From the NCBI GenBank assembly GCA_044350895.1, contig JBILGT010000001.1:41874-105873 (forward strand): a DNA stretch of 64,000 bases, given 5' to 3'. Below, piece after piece: positions 4,250 to 58,854 of the stretch (positions are counted from its first letter, which is position 1; every line of letters begins with the position of its first letter). The stretch comes from Limisphaerales bacterium. GTDB lineage: Bacteria > Patescibacteriota > Microgenomatia > UBA1400 > PJMF01. The notes under the pieces are model-generated. The model searched no databases and was not told where the DNA came from. It saw nothing but the letters and a program-made list of their open reading frames with translations. Position numbers and translations under genes: made by a program.

Positions 4250-4321
4250 GCCCAGATAGTTCAGTGGCAGAACGCTTTCTTGGTAAGAAAGAGGTCGCGA
4301 GTCCGATTCTCGCTCTGGGCT
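4250..4321 (+). tRNA. tRNA-Thr (anticodon GGT)
   Basis: Cloverleaf: acceptor GCCCAGA/TCTGGGC, D-arm GTTC-AGTGGCA-GAAC, anticodon stem CTTTC/GAAAG with loop TTGGTAA, T-arm GCGAG-TCCGATT-CTCGC. CCA is not encoded. Confidence 0.8.
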
Positions 4322-4390
4322 CACCTAAAAAACAAGTTCGTAATTAAAATCTACCAGGATCTCACTTTTCTTGATACAATACATCTTCAT

Positions 4391-4473
4391 GCCAGGTTAC
4401 CCAAGTGGCCAACGGGGGCAGACTGTAAATCTGCTGGCGTACGCCTTCGTAGGTTCGAATCCTTCACCTGGCA
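4391..4473 (+). tRNA. tRNA-Tyr (anticodon GTA), long variable arm
   Basis: GCCAGGT...GCAGACTGTAAATCTGC...GTAGGTTCGAATCCTTC ACCTGGC A. Closely resembles canonical bacterial tRNA-Tyr, including the long extra arm. Confidence 0.9.
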
Positions 4474-4538
4474 CAGAACATTGCACTATTGGTTTATGCA
4501 GTGTACTGTACGACATATTGCTATAATAAAAACCAAAT

Positions 4539-4610
4539 GCCGGGATAGCTCAGCGGTAGAGCACCTGTTTTGTAAACAGGGGGTCCAGGGTTCGAATCCC
4601 TGTCTCGGCT
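4539..4610 (+). tRNA. tRNA-Thr (anticodon TGT)
   Basis: Acceptor GCCGGGA/TCTCGGC, D-arm GCTC-AGCGGTA-GAGC, anticodon stem CCTGT/ACAGG with loop TTTGTAA, T-arm CAGGG-TTCGAAT-CCCTG. Confidence 0.85.
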
Positions 4611-7897: not shown

Positions 7898-7968
7898 AGG
7901 GCCGTAGTTCAACGGTAGAATAGAGGTCTCCAAAACCTTTGACGAAGGTTCGATTCCTTCCGGCCCTG
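7898..7968 (+). tRNA. tRNA-Trp (anticodon CCA)
   Basis: AGGGCCG TA GTTC AACGGTA GAAT A GAGGT CTCCAAA ACCTT TGACG GAAGG TTCGATT CCTTC CGGCCCT G. Strongly resembles bacterial tRNA-Trp. Confidence 0.9.
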
Positions 7969-39152: not shown

Positions 39153-42100
39153 TTGATGCTTGCTGAACAAACGCCAACTGTATCGGGTGAATTTTTGAAA
39201 GGATTTGAGCTTCCTGAAAGATGGAAGCGTTTTAGTATATCTCGATTACTTGAAAAGAGACGAGTTGCTTCCTCTTTGAGGAACGAATACAGAGAAACTC
39301 TGCAGCAACCGTCTCCGGAGCCACTTACTCACTACCAAGATGATAATAATGAATTACATAACCTCTTTGCATACTTAGCAACTACTAGTGAGCTGGAGTT
39401 TGATACACCTAGTACGCAACTTCTCACGGGAATTGCTGAAAATATGCTTGCAGGTTCGCAGACATCAGAGCGTATCCAAGTGGTAATTATTAAGCGATCT
39501 CAACAATGCAATGCGTTTGTAACTGCCGACGGTACAATTTTTATGACGCAGGCTTTGCTAAATAAATGTACACATCTTGATGAAGCAGCAGCGGTAATCG
39601 GACATGAAGTTGGGCACATTATCAATAAAACCCATGTGCATACTAATTCAGTATATGTATTAGACCGAATGAGTGTCGCATGGGCACATGAAATGGCTGC
39701 AGATTTAGAGACTCCCCGTAAGCTTAAGCAAGCCGGATATAATTCTACAGCCCTTGCTTCCATTATAGTTAAAATCGGGAGTAACGGTCGTGATTTTGAG
39801 CATCAAGGTGCACTGATGCGAGGCTCACAAAATATTGGCCTTCATGCAGTTATTGATAATGAAGCAAGTGCTCAAGGATATCAACCAATTCCTGCAGAAC
39901 TGCATGGCAAAGTTAGTTACTCAAATTTAGAAATTCTGGATTACGCCAAGAAGCAAAATAATATTGCATTGTATAACAAGACAGTGCGAGCATTGCACTC
40001 CCATGACTTTGCCGCTGAGTATAGACGTATGCAAGCGATCAGTTTTCGTGACTCTGAGGAAAACCTCAAGGTATTGACGCAGGTTGTACTAGAACGACTT
40101 GAAGGTGTCGGATACACACATCAGCAAGCTATTTTTATACTACTCGGTTTTTCTTCTGCGGAATTTACATTTTCCCCAGGCTTTAAACTTTTTGAAGATG
40201 TAGCTGAACTTACAGAAATAATTTTGGAGATTCCTCACGTCGTGACGGATAACAACATTGAATCAAAACTTGAGTCAGCTGTCCCTGAAGTACTTAAGCC
40301 CGCCCAAATACTCTCATGCATACGCAAATTTTTTAATTCGGTACATCACAATTTGGGTACAGAGGAGTCTAAAAGAGGAAGTTTGCGAGTCAGCGAAAAT
40401 GAGCTTTTTTTGCTACTACATAATATACAAGAATTGAGAAAAAGTGATGAAAATTTTGCTAGGTTTTCTCATGTCATTGAAATCATTGATAGTGCCACTA
40501 CTGTAATTTTTCTCAAGTATATTTATTTGCGGTGCGTGGCAGAAGAAATTCCACAAGATCAACAAAAACCATTATTCCATTCTTTGTATGAAAAATATAA
40601 AGGTGAGGGGATGCATATTGTGCCAGGCACAGTTTGGGGATTTAAGGCAAGCAATGAGTATATTTCTCCTGAAAATCTTCAGTTTATGCAGTATGTGGGT
40701 GATGTACTGATGAATAGAGAACCAGAGGTAAAAGAACCACTGGTGGATGAAAAACTACAGCATTTATCAGAAAAAATGGGCCAAAGAGCAACCTCAATTA
40801 ATTATGAAGTGCTGAAGGAATTACTAGTCAAAATAAATTCGAATGAAGCCGAGAATCTTACAGATGAAAAACGTAAAGAGTATTTCTATAAATTTGCACA
40901 GCAAATTGAACAAGTGCCTTTTGCTAGTTACTACAATGTTCTCGAAGAATTAGCGGCAGAAAATAAAGGGCAGAATGCAGCAGGAAGAAAAGAATCTTTA
41001 CACGGGGCTAAACTCCCACCTACAGATAGTCATACTGCAAGCAACACCGCAATTTTTAGAATGTATGCTCTGCAAGAGGTAGCTTTTTTCTTATTTAAAA
41101 CTGATACCGATGCGTTCTATGAATGTTTGGAATACAGTTGTAATACTCCTGATATTCCTTGGGACACGCTATCTTTTGTACAAGTAACAAATCTCTGTTA
41201 CTCACTTTTAAATTTACCCAAGGGGAGCTGGGTATTAGCGGATAGAACAGGCTTTGTCCTAGAAAATTCTCTGCAACAAAAGTCTACTTGTACGGTGCTC
41301 AACTATGATCGAGTATGTAGCCTTGTACCGGTGCAGCGGTTACTGGAGCTTTCTGAACAAGAAATAACACAGCTTGGTGAAATTAGTTGGGATGCCGCAA
41401 CAATCGAAGGATTTATCGCACATGTTTCTGAAAAACAATCTGGTATGTTTAGTACACGCTCAATCTTAGATCAAGCCAGTAATAGAGATAATATTTATGC
41501 AGACAATCTGTTTACATTGATTGTCTGGAGACAGGAGCGACAGGCTTTAGTTAAGATTTTAGAACAATTTGTAAGTACAGATATTAATCGATTTTCATAT
41601 AGTTATTTTCAACAACTTCCAGACTTATATTTATTGGCGTATAGATTTTTACCCTTTGATGCTCGAAGAGAAACAATCTGTCGCAACATTGCCAATCGCT
41701 ATCTTTCAGAACCAAGTGTACAGCTTGGACGTAAAATTGATTTTTTACTTATGCACTTTGATAGGATTGGGATTGAAGGTTCATTCATTGTCGGGGAACA
41801 TATTCATACCATTGCGGATTACCAGATGTTCAGGGAAAAAGTCGGAGAGGAGAAGCTGAAAAAAATTTTGACGGGTGAGAAAGATGTAAAAGTGGTGGCA
41901 CTTTTGGACTATGCAACCTCACTAGTTACATCATTTTCTGGCGGGCTTCTTGATACGATTGATGACTCACAACAAAGTAGACGTAAGGCAACAACAGATG
42001 CTGCATATAAGTGGTTGAAAACCCTATTTGTGGACTCAAAAAAAAGTGTTTCCTATGTTCCCGATAAAGAAAAATTTGAAGTTGATTCACAAAGGCGTGA

Positions 42101-43904
42101 TTCATTTCACTCATTTGCTGATACTATTGCGGTCTTACGGTCTCTTTCACCAACTATGCGAAGTCTCATTTCACATAAATTATTGGTTGATACTGGAGGA
42201 GCATTAACAACTTTGGAAGCTCGGAGGGATCTTTCTCGGAGATTATTAGAAGGTCTACAACTCGATAAGAATACCTTACAAGGGATGTTGCTAGAAGCTG
42301 TAGTGATAGACGGTAAAGCAGAATTCATTGGTTTTCCTGCCGCTCAAATGATTGCACCGCTCTTATTTAGATCATTAGATCCGCAGGCATTGGATTACGA
42401 TACCTTGCTCGATAGTAATATTTCTGTAAAAGATTCTGACCCTCAAGCAAAAGTATTCACCCAGCAACCTAAAATCCGCGATCATATTGGAGAAGCACAG
42501 GCACGGCATATTTTGACTGCATCATCTCGTGATTTAGTAAAAGTTGGACGTGAGTATTCACTCGGTGAGTCACATACCGCTGCAGAATTTGCAGGACAAT
42601 CAGATGCAGAATATCGAGCTACCTTGGAAATGCTGGAAGGTCATTTTGTGCCACAAGAAAAGGTGGATGCACCAAAAGCCCAGTTAGGTATTGATGCCAC
42701 CACTGAGGCGCTTATTTCTGCTGCAGAGTCAAGTACAGCAGGCATTACTAGGCAATTACAACTTTCTACGCAATTTAAAAAATACCCCCCAGAATTGGAA
42801 GCACGGTTGCGACGTACCTTAGATTCCAATCCTGGACTACCAATGTTGCTAGCATGGGAGAACCTCTTCCTTTGGTCCACCCCAGAACAGGGAGATTCCC
42901 CAAAACGAGTAGCAGAAAAAGTTGCCCTTGGTGAGTACTTGCAGCAGGTTGAAATCCAGAAAAAAATTGCGGGAGGTAGTTTAAATACAATCTTTTTAGC
43001 TCACAATACTCAAACGAAAAGGGACATTGTCGCTCGTATACAGAATCCAAATGCAGAGTTTTTTGTACAAGCGGGCTATGAGCTGGTAGAAGCTGCATAT
43101 GATTACGTTTTGAAAAAAACAGGGAGAAAGTATGCCCGTGAAGTAAAAATTGGCAAGATGCTCAATGCACTAACTCAGCGATGGTGTATCAGAGATATTA
43201 ATGATCCATTCTATCTAGAAGATGATGCAAATTTCAGAAGTGTAATCGCGAGTGCAACACAAGCCAACTCACTTGATATAGAGTACTATGCACCTGAATT
43301 AGAATTCACGCAGCAAAAATTCAAAACAGAAACAGTAGCTGCCGGGACCACCGCCAATAAATTTCGCAGTGGCAAGGCAACAGCAGAACAAAAAAATTTG
43401 TCATTAGAAGCATTTTTCTATTTCTTTGAACATCAGCTAGACTTTGAAAAACACACAATTGCTAAAGATGGAACGGAATATATTTTGGTACATTCAGATC
43501 AACATCTTGGCAATTACACAGATGCTTTTGAAGAGAGTACTCTCCGCAGAGGAGTAATTGATCGCAATATGTTTTTACGCTTGGAACGACCGGATCTAAG
43601 AGTCATTCAATTGTATTTAGAACCAGATAAAGGAAGAGAATTTGCCCAAGCTTTAGTTGAACGTATTCTTGATAAAAACAAAGTACGTGGGGTGAGTAGA
43701 GCTACGTTCAAGGTCTATGTGACCTCAAAACTAATTCCAGAGTATACCCGTCAAAATTTCTCAGGTCACAGTGATGAACTCTTGCTTTTGCAAGTGGTTT
43801 TTGAAGCCTGTGCGCTCAAAGACATGGATATTCCATTGGAACTACAGCTTATGTTGCGTAACGCAGCGGCATACAAGGAATTGAAAAAAACGGTGGTTAC
43901 CTAA
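39153..43904 (+). CDS. Giant multidomain protein: N-terminal M48-like zinc metallopeptidase motif, ~1100-aa helical region, C-terminal ABC1/UbiB-like atypical kinase domain
   Basis: NAFVTADGTIFMTQALL...DEAAAVIGHEVGHI (residues about 120-156; nt about 39510-39620) is a canonical M48 signature. GGSLNTIFLAHNTQTKRDIVARIQNP (nt about 42970-43050) matches the ABC1 xASIAQVHxAxL...VAVKVQRP motif. VHSDQHLGN (nt about 43488-43511) matches the ABC1/APH catalytic loop HADPHPGN. No TM segments. Confidence 0.55.
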   Translation: MMLAEQTPTVSGEFLKGFELPERWKRFSISRLLEKRRVASSLRNEYRETLQQPSPEPLTHYQDDNNELHNLFAYLATTSELEFDTPSTQLLTGIAENMLAGSQTSERIQVVIIKRSQQCNAFVTADGTIFMTQALLNKCTHLDEAAAVIGHEVGHIINKTHVHTNSVYVLDRMSVAWAHEMAADLETPRKLKQAGYNSTALASIIVKIGSNGRDFEHQGALMRGSQNIGLHAVIDNEASAQGYQPIPAELHGKVSYSNLEILDYAKKQNNIALYNKTVRALHSHDFAAEYRRMQAISFRDSEENLKVLTQVVLERLEGVGYTHQQAIFILLGFSSAEFTFSPGFKLFEDVAELTEIILEIPHVVTDNNIESKLESAVPEVLKPAQILSCIRKFFNSVHHNLGTEESKRGSLRVSENELFLLLHNIQELRKSDENFARFSHVIEIIDSATTVIFLKYIYLRCVAEEIPQDQQKPLFHSLYEKYKGEGMHIVPGTVWGFKASNEYISPENLQFMQYVGDVLMNREPEVKEPLVDEKLQHLSEKMGQRATSINYEVLKELLVKINSNEAENLTDEKRKEYFYKFAQQIEQVPFASYYNVLEELAAENKGQNAAGRKESLHGAKLPPTDSHTASNTAIFRMYALQEVAFFLFKTDTDAFYECLEYSCNTPDIPWDTLSFVQVTNLCYSLLNLPKGSWVLADRTGFVLENSLQQKSTCTVLNYDRVCSLVPVQRLLELSEQEITQLGEISWDAATIEGFIAHVSEKQSGMFSTRSILDQASNRDNIYADNLFTLIVWRQERQALVKILEQFVSTDINRFSYSYFQQLPDLYLLAYRFLPFDARRETICRNIANRYLSEPSVQLGRKIDFLLMHFDRIGIEGSFIVGEHIHTIADYQMFREKVGEEKLKKILTGEKDVKVVALLDYATSLVTSFSGGLLDTIDDSQQSRRKATTDAAYKWLKTLFVDSKKSVSYVPDKEKFEVDSQRRDSFHSFADTIAVLRSLSPTMRSLISHKLLVDTGGALTTLEARRDLSRRLLEGLQLDKNTLQGMLLEAVVIDGKAEFIGFPAAQMIAPLLFRSLDPQALDYDTLLDSNISVKDSDPQAKVFTQQPKIRDHIGEAQARHILTASSRDLVKVGREYSLGESHTAAEFAGQSDAEYRATLEMLEGHFVPQEKVDAPKAQLGIDATTEALISAAESSTAGITRQLQLSTQFKKYPPELEARLRRTLDSNPGLPMLLAWENLFLWSTPEQGDSPKRVAEKVALGEYLQQVEIQKKIAGGSLNTIFLAHNTQTKRDIVARIQNPNAEFFVQAGYELVEAAYDYVLKKTGRKYAREVKIGKMLNALTQRWCIRDINDPFYLEDDANFRSVIASATQANSLDIEYYAPELEFTQQKFKTETVAAGTTANKFRSGKATAEQKNLSLEAFFYFFEHQLDFEKHTIAKDGTEYILVHSDQHLGNYTDAFEESTLRRGVIDRNMFLRLERPDLRVIQLYLEPDKGREFAQALVERILDKNKVRGVSRATFKVYVTSKLIPEYTRQNFSGHSDELLLLQVVFEACALKDMDIPLELQLMLRNAAAYKELKKTVVT

Positions 43905-50096: not shown

Positions 50097-51113
50097 TTGA
50101 ATATGTCAGCACCCTTAGAAAAAGAACGACTTTCACAACAACTTGATGAGCTCTTTTTACAATCACCACGTCGCACTTCTGAAGTGACTGAGTTCCCAGA
50201 TTCAGAGGCTCACCGACAGCATGAACCGACATCACCATTTGGTACAAATCCTCCAGAAATGGTGGTTTTTCCTTCGAATAGTTATAGAAAAGCCATCATG
50301 CTGTACTGGTCGTTGGTGGAGCAGTACGACCTCACACAGTGGCCAGATTTTGTGGGACATATTCAGCACCTTCCAGAAGAACTCACCGATGCAGCCTCAG
50401 TTGTGACATATTTTGAAAAGCATATTCATAACGGTAATGGAGTAGTACGGCATCCGTTTTTAATTGGGCATCTGCCCGATGGTATTCCACTGTACTTATG
50501 TCCCACCGATGGCGAAACCAGTAGTAATGATGACCCCGTCCAAGAAGCACGTAATAAAATTGCTGATATCCGCCATTTATTTGCAAGCAGAGATGTTGTT
50601 TTCTTTGCAACAGATGCTGTCCAAGATATTCGTACCTCTGAGCAAAAGCTGGGTAAGCCGATGAATCGAGCTGAATACCAGGTGGCTGCACAAAACGGTG
50701 AAGTAGATATTTTTAAGGCAGAGTATTTGCAACGCTTTTATGTATCACCAGATGATGAGCCGCTGTATGACCGCCATATAACAGGTCTTGTTGTCGAGCG
50801 TGGTGATGTTCAATATGAAGAAGAAATTGTGCTCTCGGTGGAAGTTCAGGAGTGGCTATTGCAGTTTGTGGAAGTACATCTGGGCATGGGGGGTGGCGGA
50901 ATTTTCCAGCAGCTTGTAGGGTTCCTTGAACAGCAAGAACGCGAAATTTGGCTCAAGCTCCAAAATGATGATTTGGCAGAGTATTTGCAAGGAATCGATT
51001 CTCAGCTCTGGTCTTTTACAGTAATTTTTCATATTATGGGAGTACCAGCATGGAAAATACTGGCAGCTTTTGAACATGTATCTCAAGAACTGCCAGCTAA
51101 GGAGTTTGCATGA
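50097..51113 (+). CDS. Hypothetical protein
   Basis: 338-aa ORF. Its stop overlaps the tmk start. Confidence 0.4.
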   Translation: MNMSAPLEKERLSQQLDELFLQSPRRTSEVTEFPDSEAHRQHEPTSPFGTNPPEMVVFPSNSYRKAIMLYWSLVEQYDLTQWPDFVGHIQHLPEELTDAASVVTYFEKHIHNGNGVVRHPFLIGHLPDGIPLYLCPTDGETSSNDDPVQEARNKIADIRHLFASRDVVFFATDAVQDIRTSEQKLGKPMNRAEYQVAAQNGEVDIFKAEYLQRFYVSPDDEPLYDRHITGLVVERGDVQYEEEIVLSVEVQEWLLQFVEVHLGMGGGGIFQQLVGFLEQQEREIWLKLQNDDLAEYLQGIDSQLWSFTVIFHIMGVPAWKILAAFEHVSQELPAKEFA

Positions 51114-51857: not shown

Positions 51858-53093
51858 ATGACTCAAATAAATCACGAACACGTATTCTCATTAGCCGAGA
51901 CAGTCGATACACGACTCGATCAATGGCTTAAAAAGTTCCCAGTATTAGCACAACCACTTTTGCAAGAGGCCACTTTGGACTTCGATGTTGTGCCAGTTAC
52001 TGGAAATATAGCAGAAACATCTCAAGTACATCCCGATGCATTTGATGCACGAGGACGCCTATTTGATCCTGAATATGTTGAAAATGAAGCCCTATTTGGA
52101 CATCTCACACCAAAGTTTCCTGAACAAAGCAAAATAGTGCTTGATAGAGCCCGCCACTCGGCTGATGTCTTGGCGCGCTTGAGCGAGGGAACCAATTTGC
52201 GAACTCCTGAAAATGGTTTGGGATTGGCTGAAGCACAAGCTTGTATCAATTGGTTGTGTGAAATTCAGCCTTCTCAAGATACCTATGTCTATCAAGCTCC
52301 AGACCTGCTGCGGTTCAGCCTAGATGTCCAACTGAACAACGTCAAAAACCGTTTGCTGCCACATAGTTTGGCGGCAGGCTTGGTGTCATATCACTTGGCT
52401 CTTCAAATGAATAGATTGGCGGGTCACGAAGTAGTGAATCCATATTATGTCCTTATTCAGAATTTAATTCATGAATCACAGCGCATGATTACCCATGATG
52501 TCATTATTCACGACGCATTATTGCCCAAAGTTCTCTTACGAGCACTGGGACACATGGACTTTGCGCAAGATCACGGCGAACATCACCCACGTATTTTGGA
52601 TGTAGACGCAGAAGAGCTTTCATTAGAGCAACGTATTCAGTTCCTTCTCTGGCCAGGTGACGCTTTTACCAAAGCCAGTCCGGACGAAGGCAATCCATTC
52701 AAAACAGCAGACGGAAAGCCACATTTCAGAAGAGCGGAAGACGGAGTGTCAGAGGTTCTTAATTCGCTGCCTAACTACAACAAAACCGTCACCAAAGAAG
52801 ATGTGGAAGCAGCAAAAGAAACAGGTGAGTATCTCCAATTATTGCTGAAAGTATTTGGTCACAATATTAAGTCAGTGATTCAATATGTCATAGATCTGGG
52901 AATGTTATCAAAGATCCCAGCAGAACTTGAACAGCATGGTGTTTCACTCCAAGCTGCTTTGGATGAAGTAGAACCTGTGTGGGCAAAAGTATTGACAATA
53001 TTCTGGAATAACAACAATCTTTCCCATGAACAAATGGCCACAGTCATGAATATAGAGTTGCAAGAATTCCTCGTGGGACATCCTGCACGCTAA
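51858..53093 (+). CDS. Hypothetical protein
   Basis: 411-aa ORF with no recognisable motif. Confidence 0.4.
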   Translation: MTQINHEHVFSLAETVDTRLDQWLKKFPVLAQPLLQEATLDFDVVPVTGNIAETSQVHPDAFDARGRLFDPEYVENEALFGHLTPKFPEQSKIVLDRARHSADVLARLSEGTNLRTPENGLGLAEAQACINWLCEIQPSQDTYVYQAPDLLRFSLDVQLNNVKNRLLPHSLAAGLVSYHLALQMNRLAGHEVVNPYYVLIQNLIHESQRMITHDVIIHDALLPKVLLRALGHMDFAQDHGEHHPRILDVDAEELSLEQRIQFLLWPGDAFTKASPDEGNPFKTADGKPHFRRAEDGVSEVLNSLPNYNKTVTKEDVEAAKETGEYLQLLLKVFGHNIKSVIQYVIDLGMLSKIPAELEQHGVSLQAALDEVEPVWAKVLTIFWNNNNLSHEQMATVMNIELQEFLVGHPAR

Positions 53094-53791: not shown

Positions 53792-56700
53792 CTAATACTC
53801 AAAATCATCTTCTTCTAAAAACTGTCTCAAACTCTGTATCCCTCGATGTCGGAGTGCTTTAATAGAGCCTTCCGTTTTATTTAGCATCTCTGCCATTTCA
53901 GAAATTGAGTAACCCTCAAGGTATTGTAGAGTAATTATCTCTGCTTGTTCTTCCGTTAGGCGACTAATTGCCTTGCGAAGTTTAAGCGCATCATAACTTG
54001 CAGCGGCCATTGCAACTGGATTATGTTCATGACGATCTGTGATCAATGAGTCTTCCAGTTCCACTTGCTGTTGCCGATCTCGTTGCCGGTAGTAGTCAAT
54101 CACTCGATTATGCGCAATACGATAGAGCCATCCAGAGAAAGAGCTGTGCCAGGCTTTGTCCGCTCTGATTGCCTCCAGCATTTTCAAAAATACTTCAGCT
54201 GTTAATTCTTCTGCTAACGATTCATTTCCAGTGCGGCGATAAATATAGCTATAGATACGGGCTTCATAGCGATCATACAGTTCCTCCAAAGCCCGTTCAT
54301 CAAAGGAGGCAGCCCGAACCTCGAGTTGTTTTACAAGGGCTTTTTCATCAGGTTTTACTTTTTCATCTGATAAAATATCTCTAACCTCAGATGCATCAAA
54401 TCCATATTTTGCATCATATGCAGCAAAATCACTGGGATCAACTATTTCTCCTTCGAGAGCTGAATTGGCTGGTGCTGGAGTAGGTTCTAGTGCGGTTCTG
54501 GATTGTTCATCTGATTGCTGTGGGACCTCGACAGCGTCAGCAGGGATCTCAGAATCTCGCTCTAGTCTTTGCCTAGAAGTAGGAATGGTTTTTCCAGCAG
54601 CAGCTTTTCTTGTTGTATTAGTTTTCTTGCGCCTTACAGTGTCCGTTACTTTTTTCTTATTTTCAGTTTTTTGTTTATCAGGTACAGCTGGTGCTCCGTC
54701 AGCAAGTTCAGCTAATTGTGAAAATGAAACTTCAGGCCCAAGTACTTCGACTTGAGCTTCTGGTGTTATAGCCACAGTAAGGGCAGGCGGAGCGTCAATC
54801 ACAGTTTCTTGAGCGGGCGCCTCATACAAGTGATCTAAAAGTGGTAAGAGTTTGATCTGCCGTGGTTCAAAAAGGTCTGCCATTCTCACTCTGAGAGCTT
54901 GCACATGACTGGTAGTTTCATGTTCTAATTGGATAGTTGGGGCAGGTTCAGGCCCAAGAACAGGAGTGTCATTGGGTACGGCATACAGATGATCAAGTTT
55001 TGGTAATAACTTGATAGGCTGACGTTCAAAAAGATCCGGATTTTTCTTGCGCAGTGCTCTCAATTGTGTAACCTCAGGAGATTCAGTTAGTACAGACTCA
55101 GGCATGACAAATTTTGAGATTGGTTTTTCCAGCACAGGAGCCGCTTCAGAGGTTTGATTGATCTCATCAATTAGTTCAAGGAGTCCGGGATTTGTAGCAA
55201 GGGGAACTTCTTGAGGAACTTTTGGTCGTCTCGTTCTCTTTGGTGTACTGGTTCGTGCCTGAGTTTCACGTTTAGGGATTGTTACAGCTGGTTGCGGTTC
55301 AGGTTCAGATGTTTGAGATATCTCGGATTCATCTTGGCTAAATCTCTCAAGATTCCTCAGGATTGCGGGGGAAAAGGATCGAGCACGTCCTTTGGGTTTA
55401 CCAGTTGAAAGTGGAGCTTGTTGCTGCGTTGTTTCAACACTTGGCGCAATTCGTTCACTTAGAGGAAGTACCCAAACATTTGAATCTTCTGCCAAGTCCT
55501 CAGCTGATTTTGGTTCCATCGCGGCAAGTGCTTTATCTTCCGCTGATGTATTATTGTCACGAGTGTTATCAACCAACCGTGGATTAAACCACCTCCAGAG
55601 CACCGCTTGATGGCAGAAAAAAGTAGATATCAGGCCGCGTAGTGTGCTCATAACATACCCTCTGACATGGTTGAAGTGATATCTTCCATCCTTTACGCCG
55701 CGAAAAATTCGTTCATACAAATCTTGTACGATGTCATCATACGAAACACCACCTCTTGCGACTATGCCCATGCGGCCTTTCACATAATTGAGGAGCATTG
55801 GATAATTGTCTGAAAAAAAATCATTGAGTTCATACAACAATTCATCCGTGCTTTTTGTACTGGTCTCATTTGCTCCTTCTAGGAGCTGTTCCAATTCTGC
55901 TTCAACCGCTTGAAACTCTTTTTCTTCATCTGAAGGACTTTCTGATGCTGCTGGAATACTAATTTCAGGAAGTGCCGCTGTAGCTCTTGCACTACTAATT
56001 TCACCATAGAGCTTCTTCTTCCGCAAAAATTCATCTACCATTTCTGGTCTAAAATTGGGAACATCATTTCTTAAACTTGCAATAACGTGATCCAAAATGT
56101 CATGACTTTCGAAGTCATAGTGGGGGACAGTTCGAGGTTTTCCCACAGTTGTTTCGGTCTCATCCCCTGGAGCATCAGCTTCAGGTAATTGCTGATAGGC
56201 TGCACTTAAGCTATCTCTTCCACGTTTTATTCTAGATTTTGTAGCACCTAGTGTAGTCTCAAGATCTGGAATGACTGAGGTAACTATCAAACTAATTTCT
56301 TCGTTTGAGAGGTCTGGCTCGTATGTCCTGAGTGCCAGTGATAGTCTTTGTGACGGGGGCATTCGTTTGAAAGCAGTTAATAAACGTACTTTTTCATCAT
56401 AGGAAAGTACGCTCGATTCAGGAATATTAAAACGTTCAGATTCAGTGTAATACTGTTCATTCTCACCATCATCTATTCTGGCAAATGGGTCACCACTTCT
56501 ATAGAGTGTGTTTTGCGTATGCAAAGTATGTAACTCATGATGGATATGTTGATCAAGATGCCCGGTAAGCGGACCTTTTCTGATCCTTCGAGATACCTCT
56601 TTGAGAGCTCGATAGATCAAACCTAGTGGACGTGAGTTCTTCTTTACATCTCCGTAAATTTCACTGATAACGTAATCAATAAGTTCTTTATTAGCTCTGG

Positions 56701-56851
56701 AGTCGGGGACTATGTACTCGTAGAGCTCTCTGAGCTGATCGATTTGGGAGTTACGTAACGATTCAGGATTAAGAATATTAAAAACTTTACAGATGTTTTC
56801 TGCTAATTGTTGGGGTTGAATTTCAACTGCTTGCTCATGTACCTCTGCCAT
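53792..56851 (-). CDS. Giant sigma-70/ECF-family protein: complete ECF sigma (regions 2 and 4) at the C-terminus, preceded by an ~800-aa extension with additional region-4-like and region-2-like segments and an internal repeat
   Basis: C-terminus: LEELYDRYEARIYSYIYRR...AEELTAEVFLKMLEA...WLYRIAHNRVIDYYR (region 2, nt about 54150-54300) and LTEEQAEIITLQYLEGYSISEMAEMLNKTEGSIKALRHRG (region 4). Extension: MPPSQRLSLALRTYEPDLSNEEISLIVTSVIPDLETTLGATKSRIKRGRDSL (region-4-like HTH, nt about 56216-56370). DDIVQDLYERIFRGVKDGRY...RGYVMSTLRGLI (region-2-like, nt about 55640-55740). Repeats DLFERQPIKLLPKLDHLY and DLFEPRQIKLLPLLDHLY (nt 54971-55027 and 54822-54878). Confidence 0.55.
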   Translation of the reverse strand: MAEVHEQAVEIQPQQLAENICKVFNILNPESLRNSQIDQLRELYEYIVPDSRANKELIDYVISEIYGDVKKNSRPLGLIYRALKEVSRRIRKGPLTGHLDQHIHHELHTLHTQNTLYRSGDPFARIDDGENEQYYTESERFNIPESSVLSYDEKVRLLTAFKRMPPSQRLSLALRTYEPDLSNEEISLIVTSVIPDLETTLGATKSRIKRGRDSLSAAYQQLPEADAPGDETETTVGKPRTVPHYDFESHDILDHVIASLRNDVPNFRPEMVDEFLRKKKLYGEISSARATAALPEISIPAASESPSDEEKEFQAVEAELEQLLEGANETSTKSTDELLYELNDFFSDNYPMLLNYVKGRMGIVARGGVSYDDIVQDLYERIFRGVKDGRYHFNHVRGYVMSTLRGLISTFFCHQAVLWRWFNPRLVDNTRDNNTSAEDKALAAMEPKSAEDLAEDSNVWVLPLSERIAPSVETTQQQAPLSTGKPKGRARSFSPAILRNLERFSQDESEISQTSEPEPQPAVTIPKRETQARTSTPKRTRRPKVPQEVPLATNPGLLELIDEINQTSEAAPVLEKPISKFVMPESVLTESPEVTQLRALRKKNPDLFERQPIKLLPKLDHLYAVPNDTPVLGPEPAPTIQLEHETTSHVQALRVRMADLFEPRQIKLLPLLDHLYEAPAQETVIDAPPALTVAITPEAQVEVLGPEVSFSQLAELADGAPAVPDKQKTENKKKVTDTVRRKKTNTTRKAAAGKTIPTSRQRLERDSEIPADAVEVPQQSDEQSRTALEPTPAPANSALEGEIVDPSDFAAYDAKYGFDASEVRDILSDEKVKPDEKALVKQLEVRAASFDERALEELYDRYEARIYSYIYRRTGNESLAEELTAEVFLKMLEAIRADKAWHSSFSGWLYRIAHNRVIDYYRQRDRQQQVELEDSLITDRHEHNPVAMAAASYDALKLRKAISRLTEEQAEIITLQYLEGYSISEMAEMLNKTEGSIKALRHRGIQSLRQFLEEDDFEY

Positions 56852-57012
56852 AAAAAAATTATTGTAACTATCAATTCACTTGAAAAATCTCTCATCATAG
56901 CGTACTATAAAACCAATGTTTACAGCAATGACTCCTTATTTTTTAGATTGAAAAAGAGGGGTTTTTTTGTTTATTGATGACTTCGGTAGTAAGTATGTGA
57001 AAGGAGGCACCT

Positions 57013-57354
57013 ATGCAGGTGATCATCGATTCCAAGAACCTTACAGTGACTGAGGCACTTCGACTCCACATTGTCAAACAAGCCCAAAAGCTTGAAAAAC
57101 TCAAAAAACCCATTACCGCCGTGCGTGTGTATCTCGAGACCATTGCAAAAAAACATAACGATCCCAAATCAAATGGGGTGACATTTCATGTTGAAATCCC
57201 AGGAAAAGATGTGACTGTTCAGAAACATGCAGTAGACATGTATGAGGCTATTGTCCAGGCAGCAGAAGGTGCAGTGCGACAAGTGCGCAAGGCAGCTGAA
57301 AAGAAAATCACCAAAGAGCGTCTTGAAGCCCAGACAGAACTATCTACTGCTTGA
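57013..57354 (+). CDS. hpf: Ribosome hibernation promoting factor (HPF/RaiA, short form)
   Basis: MQVIIDSKNLTVTEALRLHIVKQAQKLEK matches HPF MxIxIxGxNxEITxALRDYVEEKLxKLEK. Confidence 0.75.
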   Translation: MQVIIDSKNLTVTEALRLHIVKQAQKLEKLKKPITAVRVYLETIAKKHNDPKSNGVTFHVEIPGKDVTVQKHAVDMYEAIVQAAEGAVRQVRKAAEKKITKERLEAQTELSTA

Positions 57355-57386: not shown

Positions 57387-57812
57387 ATGACGACAAACCC
57401 ACCAGCACAAGGTCAAGGCGGTAGTGACGCACTTGCTCAACTAGAAGCATTACTGCAAAAAACAAAAGCCTCCAAAGGTCAGGCACCTTCGAGTGGCTTG
57501 GGAGGTTTGGGTGGTGATGATTTAGTGGGAGGCCTTTCAGGTGGTGTAAATCCTGATATCGAAGCTGAAGCAGAAAAATTGGCGCGTGAACAAGCTGAAA
57601 AAGAAGAACAATTTAGAATACGAATGGAAGAATCAGAGGCTGAACGTCAGCGAGCTTTAGCTGAACAGCAGAGTAAGATGGCTGAGCTATCTAATACGCC
57701 TCAATATCAAGCACGTGTGCAACAAACAGAAGAAGCACATCAGCATGACGAAGAGCAAAAAGCTGCGATTGATGGACACGAAATTAGACAAGTAACAACT
57801 ACAAAATTGTAA
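57387..57812 (+). CDS. Hypothetical low-complexity (Gly then Glu/Gln/Ala-rich coiled-coil) protein
   Basis: Co-directional, tightly spaced ORF series downstream of hpf. Confidence 0.35.
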   Translation: MTTNPPAQGQGGSDALAQLEALLQKTKASKGQAPSSGLGGLGGDDLVGGLSGGVNPDIEAEAEKLAREQAEKEEQFRIRMEESEAERQRALAEQQSKMAELSNTPQYQARVQQTEEAHQHDEEQKAAIDGHEIRQVTTTKL

Positions 57813-57815
57813 CGT

Positions 57816-58424
57816 ATGCAAGCACCTGCCGCGCGCCCACGACCTGGTGGTGGATTCAACCCCGGAATGGGTCAATTTAATGATCATCTTGATGAACAAG
57901 CCATGCAGCAAGCGATGAAGCAGAAGGCTTTAGGTCAACAGGCTGGGTCCCAAACAGGACCAATTCAAAATTCCTCACAGCAGTCCAATACGCAACAGCC
58001 ACCACCTGAGGCTGGCAGCGCATCAATGTTTGATACGATTGTTTCAAAACCAGTGCAGGATTTGGCAAAGACAATCCTTGGAGCACTGCATCTTGATAAA
58101 CTACTGGGGTTGGGTGGGAACACAAGTACCCCAGAAGAAAAAGCCAAAAAAGATGCAATGATGCGTCGTTACAATCAGTTGACAGAAGAGCAGCAAGCTG
58201 TGGCACGACAAAAGTATCAGGAACGCATGCAGCGTGAAAAAATGTTGCAGCAAGAAGCGGAACAGCGTAAGCAAATGGAAGAGAAGAAGAAGGAAGCGTC
58301 AATTCAGATGCCAAGCTCTCCACAAAAAGGTGCTCCAGATCCTCATGGATCCAAAAAGAGTAATGCCATTCAAAAATTGCAACAAGATAGAAAAACACTG
58401 GGTGGACCGCAAAGTGCTGGGTAG
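57816..58424 (+). CDS. Hypothetical low-complexity Gln/Glu/Lys-rich protein
   Basis: Starts 4 nt after the previous ORF. The antisense 190-aa ORF is rejected as a shadow. Confidence 0.35.
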   Translation: MQAPAARPRPGGGFNPGMGQFNDHLDEQAMQQAMKQKALGQQAGSQTGPIQNSSQQSNTQQPPPEAGSASMFDTIVSKPVQDLAKTILGALHLDKLLGLGGNTSTPEEKAKKDAMMRRYNQLTEEQQAVARQKYQERMQREKMLQQEAEQRKQMEEKKKEASIQMPSSPQKGAPDPHGSKKSNAIQKLQQDRKTLGGPQSAG

Positions 58425-58449
58425 TTGAAAAGTTGTATAATGAGCACAT

Positions 58450-58854
58450 ATGTCAGCAGCAACATCTGGTGCTGTCGCAGCTGCGGCAGCATACAAACAA
58501 ATGATCGATGAAGAGGAGGAGATTATGACTAAATATTCACCTGAAGAACTCGAAAAGTGGGAATTTAAGATTTTACGTAGTAATTTTGGTAGTTTTGGGA
58601 ATCTGCAAACGTTACAACAAGTGTTAGAAGAAGAGAAGCAAGCTGGCTGGGAACTGGTAGAAAAATTTGATAACACACGCCTTCGTTTCAAACGAAGAAT
58701 TGAAGAGCGATCCCACGATAGTAGTAGAACAATCGACCCATATCGCAGTACTCATGGTGCAGGTTCTGCGACATTTGTTTTTTGGATTATTTTTGGACTG
58801 TTATTTTTTATTATATTCATGGCTGCAATTGGTGGTCTCATATCCGCACTCTAG
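58450..58854 (+). CDS. Hypothetical protein with a DUF4177-like N-terminus and a C-terminal TM
   Basis: KWEFKILRSNFGSFG then a C-terminal hydrophobic helix (FVFWIIFGLLFFIIFMAAIGGLI). Confidence 0.35.
   Translation: MSAATSGAVAAAAAYKQMIDEEEEIMTKYSPEELEKWEFKILRSNFGSFGNLQTLQQVLEEEKQAGWELVEKFDNTRLRFKRRIEERSHDSSRTIDPYRSTHGAGSATFVFWIIFGLLFFIIFMAAIGGLISAL

Follow-up and report, generated by a model that had tools for sequence, protein, structure and literature searches.

A 64,000-nucleotide stretch of contig JBILGT010000001.1 (assembly GCA_044350895.1, Limisphaerales bacterium), referred to here as the window, encodes on its minus strand a 1019-aa extracytoplasmic function (ECF) sigma factor whose architecture departs from the stand-alone form of its nearest relatives. 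An intact ECF occupies the C-terminal fifth of the protein, and it is preceded by an N-terminal extension of ~835 aa that, judged by profile comparison, is partly built from decayed extra copies of a sigma factor. We are highly confident of a four-part anatomy consisting of a degenerate sigma2'-sigma4' unit, a lone sigma2'', a disordered tether and the intact ECF. The predicted modules run in canonical order and in tandem, as (sigma2'-sigma4')-spacer-(sigma2'')-tether-(sigma2-sigma4). For the overall interpretation, that tandem ECF copies were fused and then decayed into a cis-regulatory pro-domain replacing an anti-sigma factor, we see about even chances. The parts of the gene are as follows.

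53792..56851, minus strand: long ECF sigma gene with N-terminal extension, 1019 aa; coordinates include the stop codon.
56498..56746 (aa 36-118), minus strand: pseudo-sigma2', recognised by hhalign as part of block 1; 30% identical to the orthologue P0003.
56189..56404 (aa 150-221), minus strand: pseudo-sigma4', recognised by TIGR02983, Pfam r4_2, hhalign, AlphaFold2 (AF2) and PDB profile matches.
55847..56188 (aa 222-335), minus strand: inter-block region, acidic, predicted helical, without detectable family.
55604..55828 (aa 342-416), minus strand: extra sigma2'', recognised by TIGR02937, Pfam r2, hhalign, the corresponding P0003 block and a PDB match.
54347..55561 (aa 431-835), minus strand: mostly disordered tether of ~400 aa, P/E/S/T/K/Q-rich and predicted mostly coil.
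54974..55060 (aa 598-626), minus strand: linker repeat copy 1, core DLFERQPIKLLPKLDHLY at aa 606-623.
54815..54898 (aa 652-679), minus strand: linker repeat copy 2, core DLFEPRQIKLLPLLDHLY at aa 659-676.
54074..54280 (aa 858-926), minus strand: canonical ECF sigma2.
53822..53983 (aa 957-1010), minus strand: canonical ECF sigma4.

The ECF core spans aa ~846-1012 and is recognised by both Pfam and NCBIfam sigma models. Its sigma2 domain scores 74.7 bits with Pfam Sigma70_r2 (gathering score 24) and is modelled by AF2 with a predicted local distance difference test score (pLDDT) of 72-83, while the sigma4 domain is matched by Sigma70_r4_2 over aa 957-1007 (57.1 bits, cut-off 25.7) and by Sigma70_r4 (38.6 bits, cut-off 24.1). 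TIGR02937 scores the core at 115 bits (cut-off 42.9). No match to Sigma70_r3 or to region 1 domains was found in the 1019-aa protein, even at E up to 10. The protein has all the defining features of the ECF (group 4) sigma-70 family and belongs to it, as an earlier note on this DNA had concluded when it described a canonical ECF sigma at the C-terminus.

The open reading frame (ORF) is one uninterrupted, ATG-started frame of 1019 codons. It holds no stop codon, compared with 3-35 per segment in the other two minus-strand frames, and the codon-position pattern GC1>GC2>GC3 is found in every segment of the gene, as it is in the neighbouring genes. The same 1019-aa protein is recorded in NCBI, JGI and Logan assemblies, and the gene is DNA-identical between the window and contigs Logan SRR27425440, JGI 3300044974 and JGI 3300042340. 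All assemblies carrying the window gene are clonal, and in 90% protein clusters both the window protein and its orthologue P0003 are singletons. Because of the open frame, the codon signal and the DNA-identical contigs, a frameshift or assembly artefact behind the ORF is very unlikely, and the single continuous ORF described earlier stands. The unusual length of the sigma ORF, and a low-complexity linker that might conceal errors, would be the grounds for suspecting a misassembly or a frameshift that fused separate genes. The codon-position signal is uniform across the whole gene, the Logan and JGI contigs agree with the window to the nucleotide, and the syntenic 933-aa orthologue, which comes from a separate project, shows the same architecture, so that this explanation retains a negligible probability and is already effectively refuted.

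The composition of the extension was examined with three profiles, namely a 27-sequence ECF alignment (A3) and two-sequence alignments of block 1 (A4) and block 2 (A5). Block 1 (aa 36-221) aligns by hhalign to A3 columns 25-188, which comprise sigma2, the linker and sigma4, with a probability of 95.8% (E 7.3e-9); for block 2 (aa 342-416) the alignment is confined to sigma2, with a probability of 93.7% (E 1.8e-7). Probabilities of 0.1-7.3% were obtained for the controls, which comprised the blocks with their residues reversed, segments from the linker and from between the blocks, and three neighbouring proteins that are unrelated. When the 840-aa extension alone was searched, TIGR02937 matched aa 342-441 with the sigma2 half of the model (E 4e-8) and TIGR02983 matched aa 150-220 with the sigma4 half (E 5.9e-5). 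In the orthologue, block 2 passes the Sigma70_r2 gathering score of 24 at 27.1 bits and matches TIGR02937 at E 3e-9, and a family-specific ECF hidden Markov model (HMM) built from 25 relatives finds it at 5.9e-8; the same model matches the pseudo-domains of the window protein weakly (i-E 0.74). The two additional sigma-like segments of the earlier note are thus genuine, though degenerate. The earlier note had reported region 4 before region 2 in the extension; that inverted order arose because a degenerate sigma2' upstream of the helix-turn-helix (HTH) had been missed, and aa 36-221 form a whole degenerate ECF unit with sigma2' first. A third sigma4 hidden after block 2 was sought and ruled out, with hhalign probabilities of <=0.5% for segments 431-560 and 431-835.

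The residues that each module keeps and loses are consistent with decay. In sigma2', the region-2.1-like helix QIDQLRELYEYI is retained (aligned to ERALEELYDRYE), and the region 2.2-2.4 signatures are lost. Sigma4' keeps the four-helix HTH pattern, with 7 residues inserted ahead of the recognition helix, and it retains an Arg at the only invariant column of A3, that of the ECF sigma4 Arg. In sigma2'', the region-2.2-like acidic/aromatic helix DDIVQDLYERIF is kept and the region-2.4-like segment VRGYVMSTLRGLISTFF is weakened; the latter is plainer in P0003, where YFFSVIRSTIIDFYRK is aligned to WLYRIAHNAVIDYYRQ. AF2 places four helices at sigma4' (aa 151-220, pLDDT 64-76) and three long helices at sigma2'' (aa 335-422). 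In PDB profile searches the top matches of both blocks were all sigma factors, those of block 1 being Escherichia coli sigmaE (1or7) and Mycobacterium tuberculosis SigK (4nqw, over aa 56-220) and that of block 2 the sigma2 domain of Streptomyces coelicolor SigR (1h3l), with weak E values of 0.018-0.14. Foldseek against the PDB likewise placed ECF sigmas on top, with E values of 0.03-0.3 that are not significant.

An exhaustive HMMER search through 1.84 billion cluster representatives yielded a single relative of the extension, P0003 (933 aa, E 1.6e-17), which originates from different (ENA) metagenomes. Word-indexed searches with the extension, with a two-sequence N-terminal profile and with the P0003 extension returned the query itself or nothing, and a metagenome scan with N-terminal patterns of the extension gave no match. 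A scan of GTDB genomes with the core returned distant ECF cores at 30-38% identity, among them ECFs of Anaerolineales metagenome-assembled genomes (37-38% identity to the core), and no long relative. P0003 lies in the same gene order as the window gene, hpf, long sigma, recR, hypothetical, tmk, hypothetical, dut and folA, and the two proteins are collinear, with 29% identity in block 1, 28% in block 2 and 60% in the ECF core; the linkers are unalignable. An orthologue of the same layout and synteny therefore carries the extension too. The family so far consists of two sequence clusters from one uncultured lineage.

Conservation within the extension is uneven. Its segments are 13-34% identical to P0003 (about 28% protein identity), compared with 85% for RecR, 79% for Hpf and 74% for Tmk of the same loci, so that the extension evolves far faster than the flanking genes. 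Its structured blocks and short islands are conserved better than the spacers. Since ~2.5 kb of extension has stayed free of stop codons in both lineages despite this fast divergence, the extension is likely to be under selection to remain coding, which argues for selection on its translation.

The tether shows no sigma similarity by hhalign over aa 431-835, and its P/E/S/T/K/Q-rich composition agrees with the Pro/Thr/Lys-rich linker described earlier. Between the orthologues it keeps three islands, SNVWVLP (aa 457-463), L..ERF (aa 498-504) and L.DGAP (aa 716-721). The duplicated 18-aa motif reported in the earlier note is also real: its two copies reach a BLOSUM score of 60 over 16 residues, compared with 30.9 +/- 3.4 for shuffles (0/500 reach 60), and the repeat extends to ~28 aa with a short helix preceding. 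At the DNA level the copies show many synonymous differences, which indicates conservation at the peptide level. A duplicated motif of a separate sequence stands at the corresponding place in P0003 (QGSFEDLPSQPELIQD / QRSFDDLPAQPSNLRD; 0/500 shuffles as high), and the loose core DL-x(2-3)-QP-x-L, common to the repeats of both orthologues, suggests that the duplication is older than their split. The long sigma proteins have no transmembrane segment (maximum KD19 1.14-1.45) and for that reason are predicted to be soluble. Neither an anti-sigma domain (zf-HC2/RskA/ASD) nor a receiver or other signalling domain was found in the extension by Pfam and NCBIfam scans.

By its sequence, the gene does not allow the sigma factor to be made by itself. 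In the window gene the stretch from aa 693 to the ECF core lacks any in-frame ATG or GTG, and the same holds for aa 679 to 790 of P0003; no Shine-Dalgarno (SD)-like motif precedes the internal start candidates, and promoter-like matches inside the gene are no commoner than in shuffled sequence. Initiation within the gene, of translation or of transcription, that would yield the sigma alone was rejected on these grounds, and because no usable internal start is present, the ECF sigma is produced solely as the last fifth of the long protein.

The nearest relatives of the core are organised differently. In the metagenome scan they were 71-74% identical (loci L009-L011) and 52-53% identical (L013/L014) to the window core, and all are stand-alone ECFs of 187-200 aa without an extension; across the 33 best ECF loci of the C-terminal scan (L003-L005, L009-L038), only stand-alone ECFs were found and the longest ORF was <=307 aa. 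A trio of CDP-alcohol phosphatidyltransferase, ECF and a membrane protein of 590-855 aa whose tail is T/P-rich recurs at the following loci.

L009:1098-4280: stand-alone ECF trio, with a LysM domain in the membrane protein.
L010:1967-5411: stand-alone ECF trio, with a LysM domain in the membrane protein.
L013:2973-6944: stand-alone ECF trio.

By position, the membrane protein is likely a putative anti-sigma factor, and these proteins probably form an uncharacterised anti-sigma family. At L012:1771-2372 the same stand-alone ECF gene is split by a frameshift into ORFs of 64 and 136 aa, reflecting either a pseudogene or a sequencing error. Within the 64-kb window there is no homologue of the L009/L010 LysM membrane protein, no second ECF and no recognisable anti-sigma-like gene, adjacent or elsewhere, NepR-like genes included. 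The idea that the extension is itself a displaced anti-sigma was discarded, there being no similarity to the downstream proteins of L009/L010. The two long proteins are 57% identical to one another and resemble these stand-alone ECFs more closely (74% and 66%), which suggests that the ancestral form was stand-alone and that evolution accelerated in the two fusion-bearing lineages, both of which are low-GC (42%).

A scenario consistent with these features is that extra ECF copies became joined in frame to the upstream side of a functional ECF and then degenerated into pseudo-sigma domains, in a lineage that would no longer pair its ECF with the downstream membrane protein of the stand-alone relatives. 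We tentatively propose, at somewhat less than even odds, that the extension is a cis-acting regulatory pro-domain which takes over the role of the missing anti-sigma, its pseudo-sigma modules holding or competing with the sigma and then releasing it. ECFs without an anti-sigma typically carry extensions that assume a regulatory role (PMC8999054). The modules appear to keep core-binding-like surfaces (the region 2.1/2.2-like helices and a sigma4-like HTH) and to lack the -10 recognition and promoter-melting signatures; they could hold the genuine sigma2 and sigma4 inactive, or compete for the RNA polymerase (RNAP) core. Release might follow from proteolysis in the disordered tether, as in maturation of the BldN pro-sigma, or from a partner that binds the repeated linker motifs. 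The specific form of in-cis sigma mimicry, in which the decayed copies act as a built-in anti-sigma or RNAP-core competitor and processing or a ligand at the tether activates the sigma, is possible and on the unlikely side. The functions suggested in the earlier note, a built-in anti-sigma, a sigma mimic or a scaffold for RNAP, are plausible.

Several observations weigh against a regulatory pro-domain of sigma origin. In the window protein both extra modules score below the Pfam gathering thresholds, block 2 at 20.4 bits with r2 (threshold 24) and sigma4' at 16 bits with r4_2 (E 0.009, threshold 25.7). Block 1 of P0003 is weak by itself (E 0.014). AF2 modelling of aa 1-480 and of the whole protein gave low confidence (mean pLDDT 48.6 and 38.5) because just two sequences exist; the helix counts fit sigma4' and sigma2'', and the models are too uncertain for claims of docking or fold, so that structure prediction, Foldseek included, did not discriminate between the proposed mechanism and its rivals. 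The core scores 161.7 bits with the BldN family model TIGR02952, under the equivalog cut-off of 206.45, and it is for this reason that the analogy to BldN drawn above is conceptual rather than one of membership. An anti-sigma or a stand-alone paralogue may also sit elsewhere, outside the 64-kb window, and fast evolution of the extension is equally what relaxed constraint would produce.

Relaxed constraint is the starting point of an alternative in which tandem ECFs were joined by loss of stop codons and the upstream copies have been decaying since, as a tail tolerated without a specific regulatory role. The 13-34% identity of the extension against 74-85% for neighbouring genes, the degenerate sigma signature residues and the tiny distribution of two clusters all fit such a relic. 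A neutral stretch of 2.5 kb whose protein identity has fallen to ~28% would not remain free of stops in two lineages, however, and the other reading frames are full of stops. The structured blocks and islands are better conserved than the spacers, and the duplicated motif is kept as a peptide despite synonymous divergence. With no internal start, moreover, the cell pays for 835 extra residues with every sigma made, and we judge the neutral explanation unlikely.

Two further functions can be envisaged for the same modules. Block 1 spans a whole ECF (sigma2 and sigma4), as does the sigma-like domain of PhyR, an established precedent for a degenerate ECF domain acting as a mimic (PMC8999054), and the pseudo-ECF unit might similarly titrate a trans-acting anti-sigma encoded elsewhere, giving a built-in partner-switch. 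The extension contains no receiver or other recognisable switch domain, the 64-kb window holds no anti-sigma candidate, no PhyR structure or family appears among the matches, and tethering at 1:1 offers no obvious switching logic without a signal input, which together make a decoy of this kind distinctly unlikely. A gain of function would instead have the sigma4' HTH and sigma2'' serve as extra DNA- or RNAP-binding modules that might recognise an extended promoter or bridge polymerase, with the tether recruiting factors or driving clustering. The retained alignment of the recognition-helix Arg and the well-formed HTH of sigma4' would suit this role, as would the region-2.2-like acidic/aromatic helix of sigma2''; the 7-residue insertion in the HTH and the lost signature residues of sigma2' would not, and no precedent was found in the ECF literature searched, leaving it only a slim chance.

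In Streptomyces BldN (ECF121), proteolysis takes off an N-terminal extension and so yields the mature ECF, as summarised in PMC7826278, citing Bibb & Buttner 2003. The window protein resembles BldN as an ECF sigma made with an N-terminal extension outside the sigma2/sigma4 core, and TIGR02952 is the best-scoring specific NCBIfam model for its core. The BldN extension is shorter than 100 aa and is not known to contain sigma-like domains, whereas that of the window protein has ~835 aa and pseudo-sigma modules. BldN also has an anti-sigma factor (PMC7826278). In the alphaproteobacterial general stress response, the degenerate ECF domain of PhyR has ceased to work as a sigma factor and regulates by sigma mimicry (PMC8999054), and block 1, as a degenerate ECF-derived sigma2+sigma4 module, is comparable. 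PhyR, however, is a separate protein with a receiver domain that acts in trans on the anti-sigma NepR, whereas the window pseudo-ECF is fused in cis to a real sigma and has no receiver domain; Pfam scans and PDB profile searches detected no sequence-level affinity of the extension to PhyR.

Fused extensions are known from other ECF groups as well. ECF41 and ECF42 have no anti-sigma, and a fused C-terminal extension contacts the ECF and inhibits RNAP-core binding (PMC8999054). These extensions differ from that of the window protein in being C-terminal, much shorter and not sigma-derived. They adopt SnoaL-like or TPR folds. N-terminal extensions have been suggested to inhibit contact with DNA in SigC (ECF36s4) and to alter stability in sigmaR' (ECF12), and neither is reported as sigma-derived (PMC7826278); no homology of either to the window extension was detected. 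The ECFs fused to an anti-sigma (ECF36, with an N-terminal transmembrane segment/DUF2275, and ECF48/52/53) differ in that the window extension has neither an anti-sigma domain nor transmembrane helices. Full-text searches of the literature on pseudo-, tandem and duplicated sigma domains returned nothing beyond PhyR-related work. Split two-subunit sigmas (sigmaO-RsoA) and the precursors pro-sigmaE and pro-sigmaK exist; to our knowledge, in neither case are pseudo-sigma domains joined to a complete sigma. We accordingly classify an ECF sigma with a fused regulatory extension as known and an extension of the sigma-derived type as new, and an ECF behind a pseudo-sigma extension was not found described in the literature searched.

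On the chromosome the sigma gene is convergent with recR downstream and divergent from hpf, the latter as the earlier note stated. The neighbouring features are listed below.

57013-57354, plus strand: hpf (Pfam Ribosomal_S30AE).
56900..56924, minus strand: upstream element TGTAAACATTGGTTTTATAGTAC in the intergenic region between the sigma gene and hpf, conserved in alignment with the orthologous L006 upstream region.
57387-58854, plus strand, downstream of hpf: three small E/Q/K/A-rich low-complexity proteins of 141, 202 and 134 aa.
50097-51113 and 51858-53093, plus strand: hypothetical proteins of 338 and 411 aa, no Pfam match.
39153-43904, plus strand: 1583-aa ORF whose sole recognisable domain is a Peptidase_M48 segment (aa 94-179) near the N-terminus.
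4250-4610 (three, clustered) and 7898-7968 (one), plus strand: four tRNA genes.

The TGTAAACATTGGTTTTATAGTAC element is a candidate promoter or operator. It overlaps a promoter-like match, TAAACA-17-TATGAT, and the window copy loosely resembles an ECF-type 'GTAAAC...CG' promoter, the CG of which is not kept in L006. The starts of the sigma gene (leader 56852-56881) and of the P0003 gene (L006:7971-8000) have A/T-rich leaders with no SD-like motif; that the two long sigma genes share this feature is a hint that translation in the lineage may start without dependence on an SD sequence. The coding strand of 57387-58854 has a high AT skew (0.28-0.32); the 141- and 202-aa proteins are 51-59% identical in the orthologous locus, and the 134-aa protein has a C-terminal hydrophobic segment, judged by eye. 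The 338- and 411-aa proteins show no detectable similarity to the genes at the same positions in L006-L008, where the flanking tmk and recR are 74-85% identical, and they are orphan, fast-evolving genes interleaved with housekeeping genes.

The impact of these findings is limited by a family of two sequence clusters in one uncultured lineage and by a function that is predicted. ECF sigmas rank as the third main pillar of signal transduction in bacteria, and the ways in which they are regulated have been catalogued by group; an 835-aa extension of pseudo-sigma domains would be a new entry in that catalogue. If the pseudo-domains bind the RNAP core or the cognate sigma, they could also serve in synthetic circuits as a compact self-inhibiting sigma module that is genetically encoded. 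In-cis sigma mimicry, if true, would represent a class of ECF regulation that the ECF census and reviews searched do not contain, and a cis-acting counterpart of the PhyR logic by which duplicated sigma genes are recycled into regulators.

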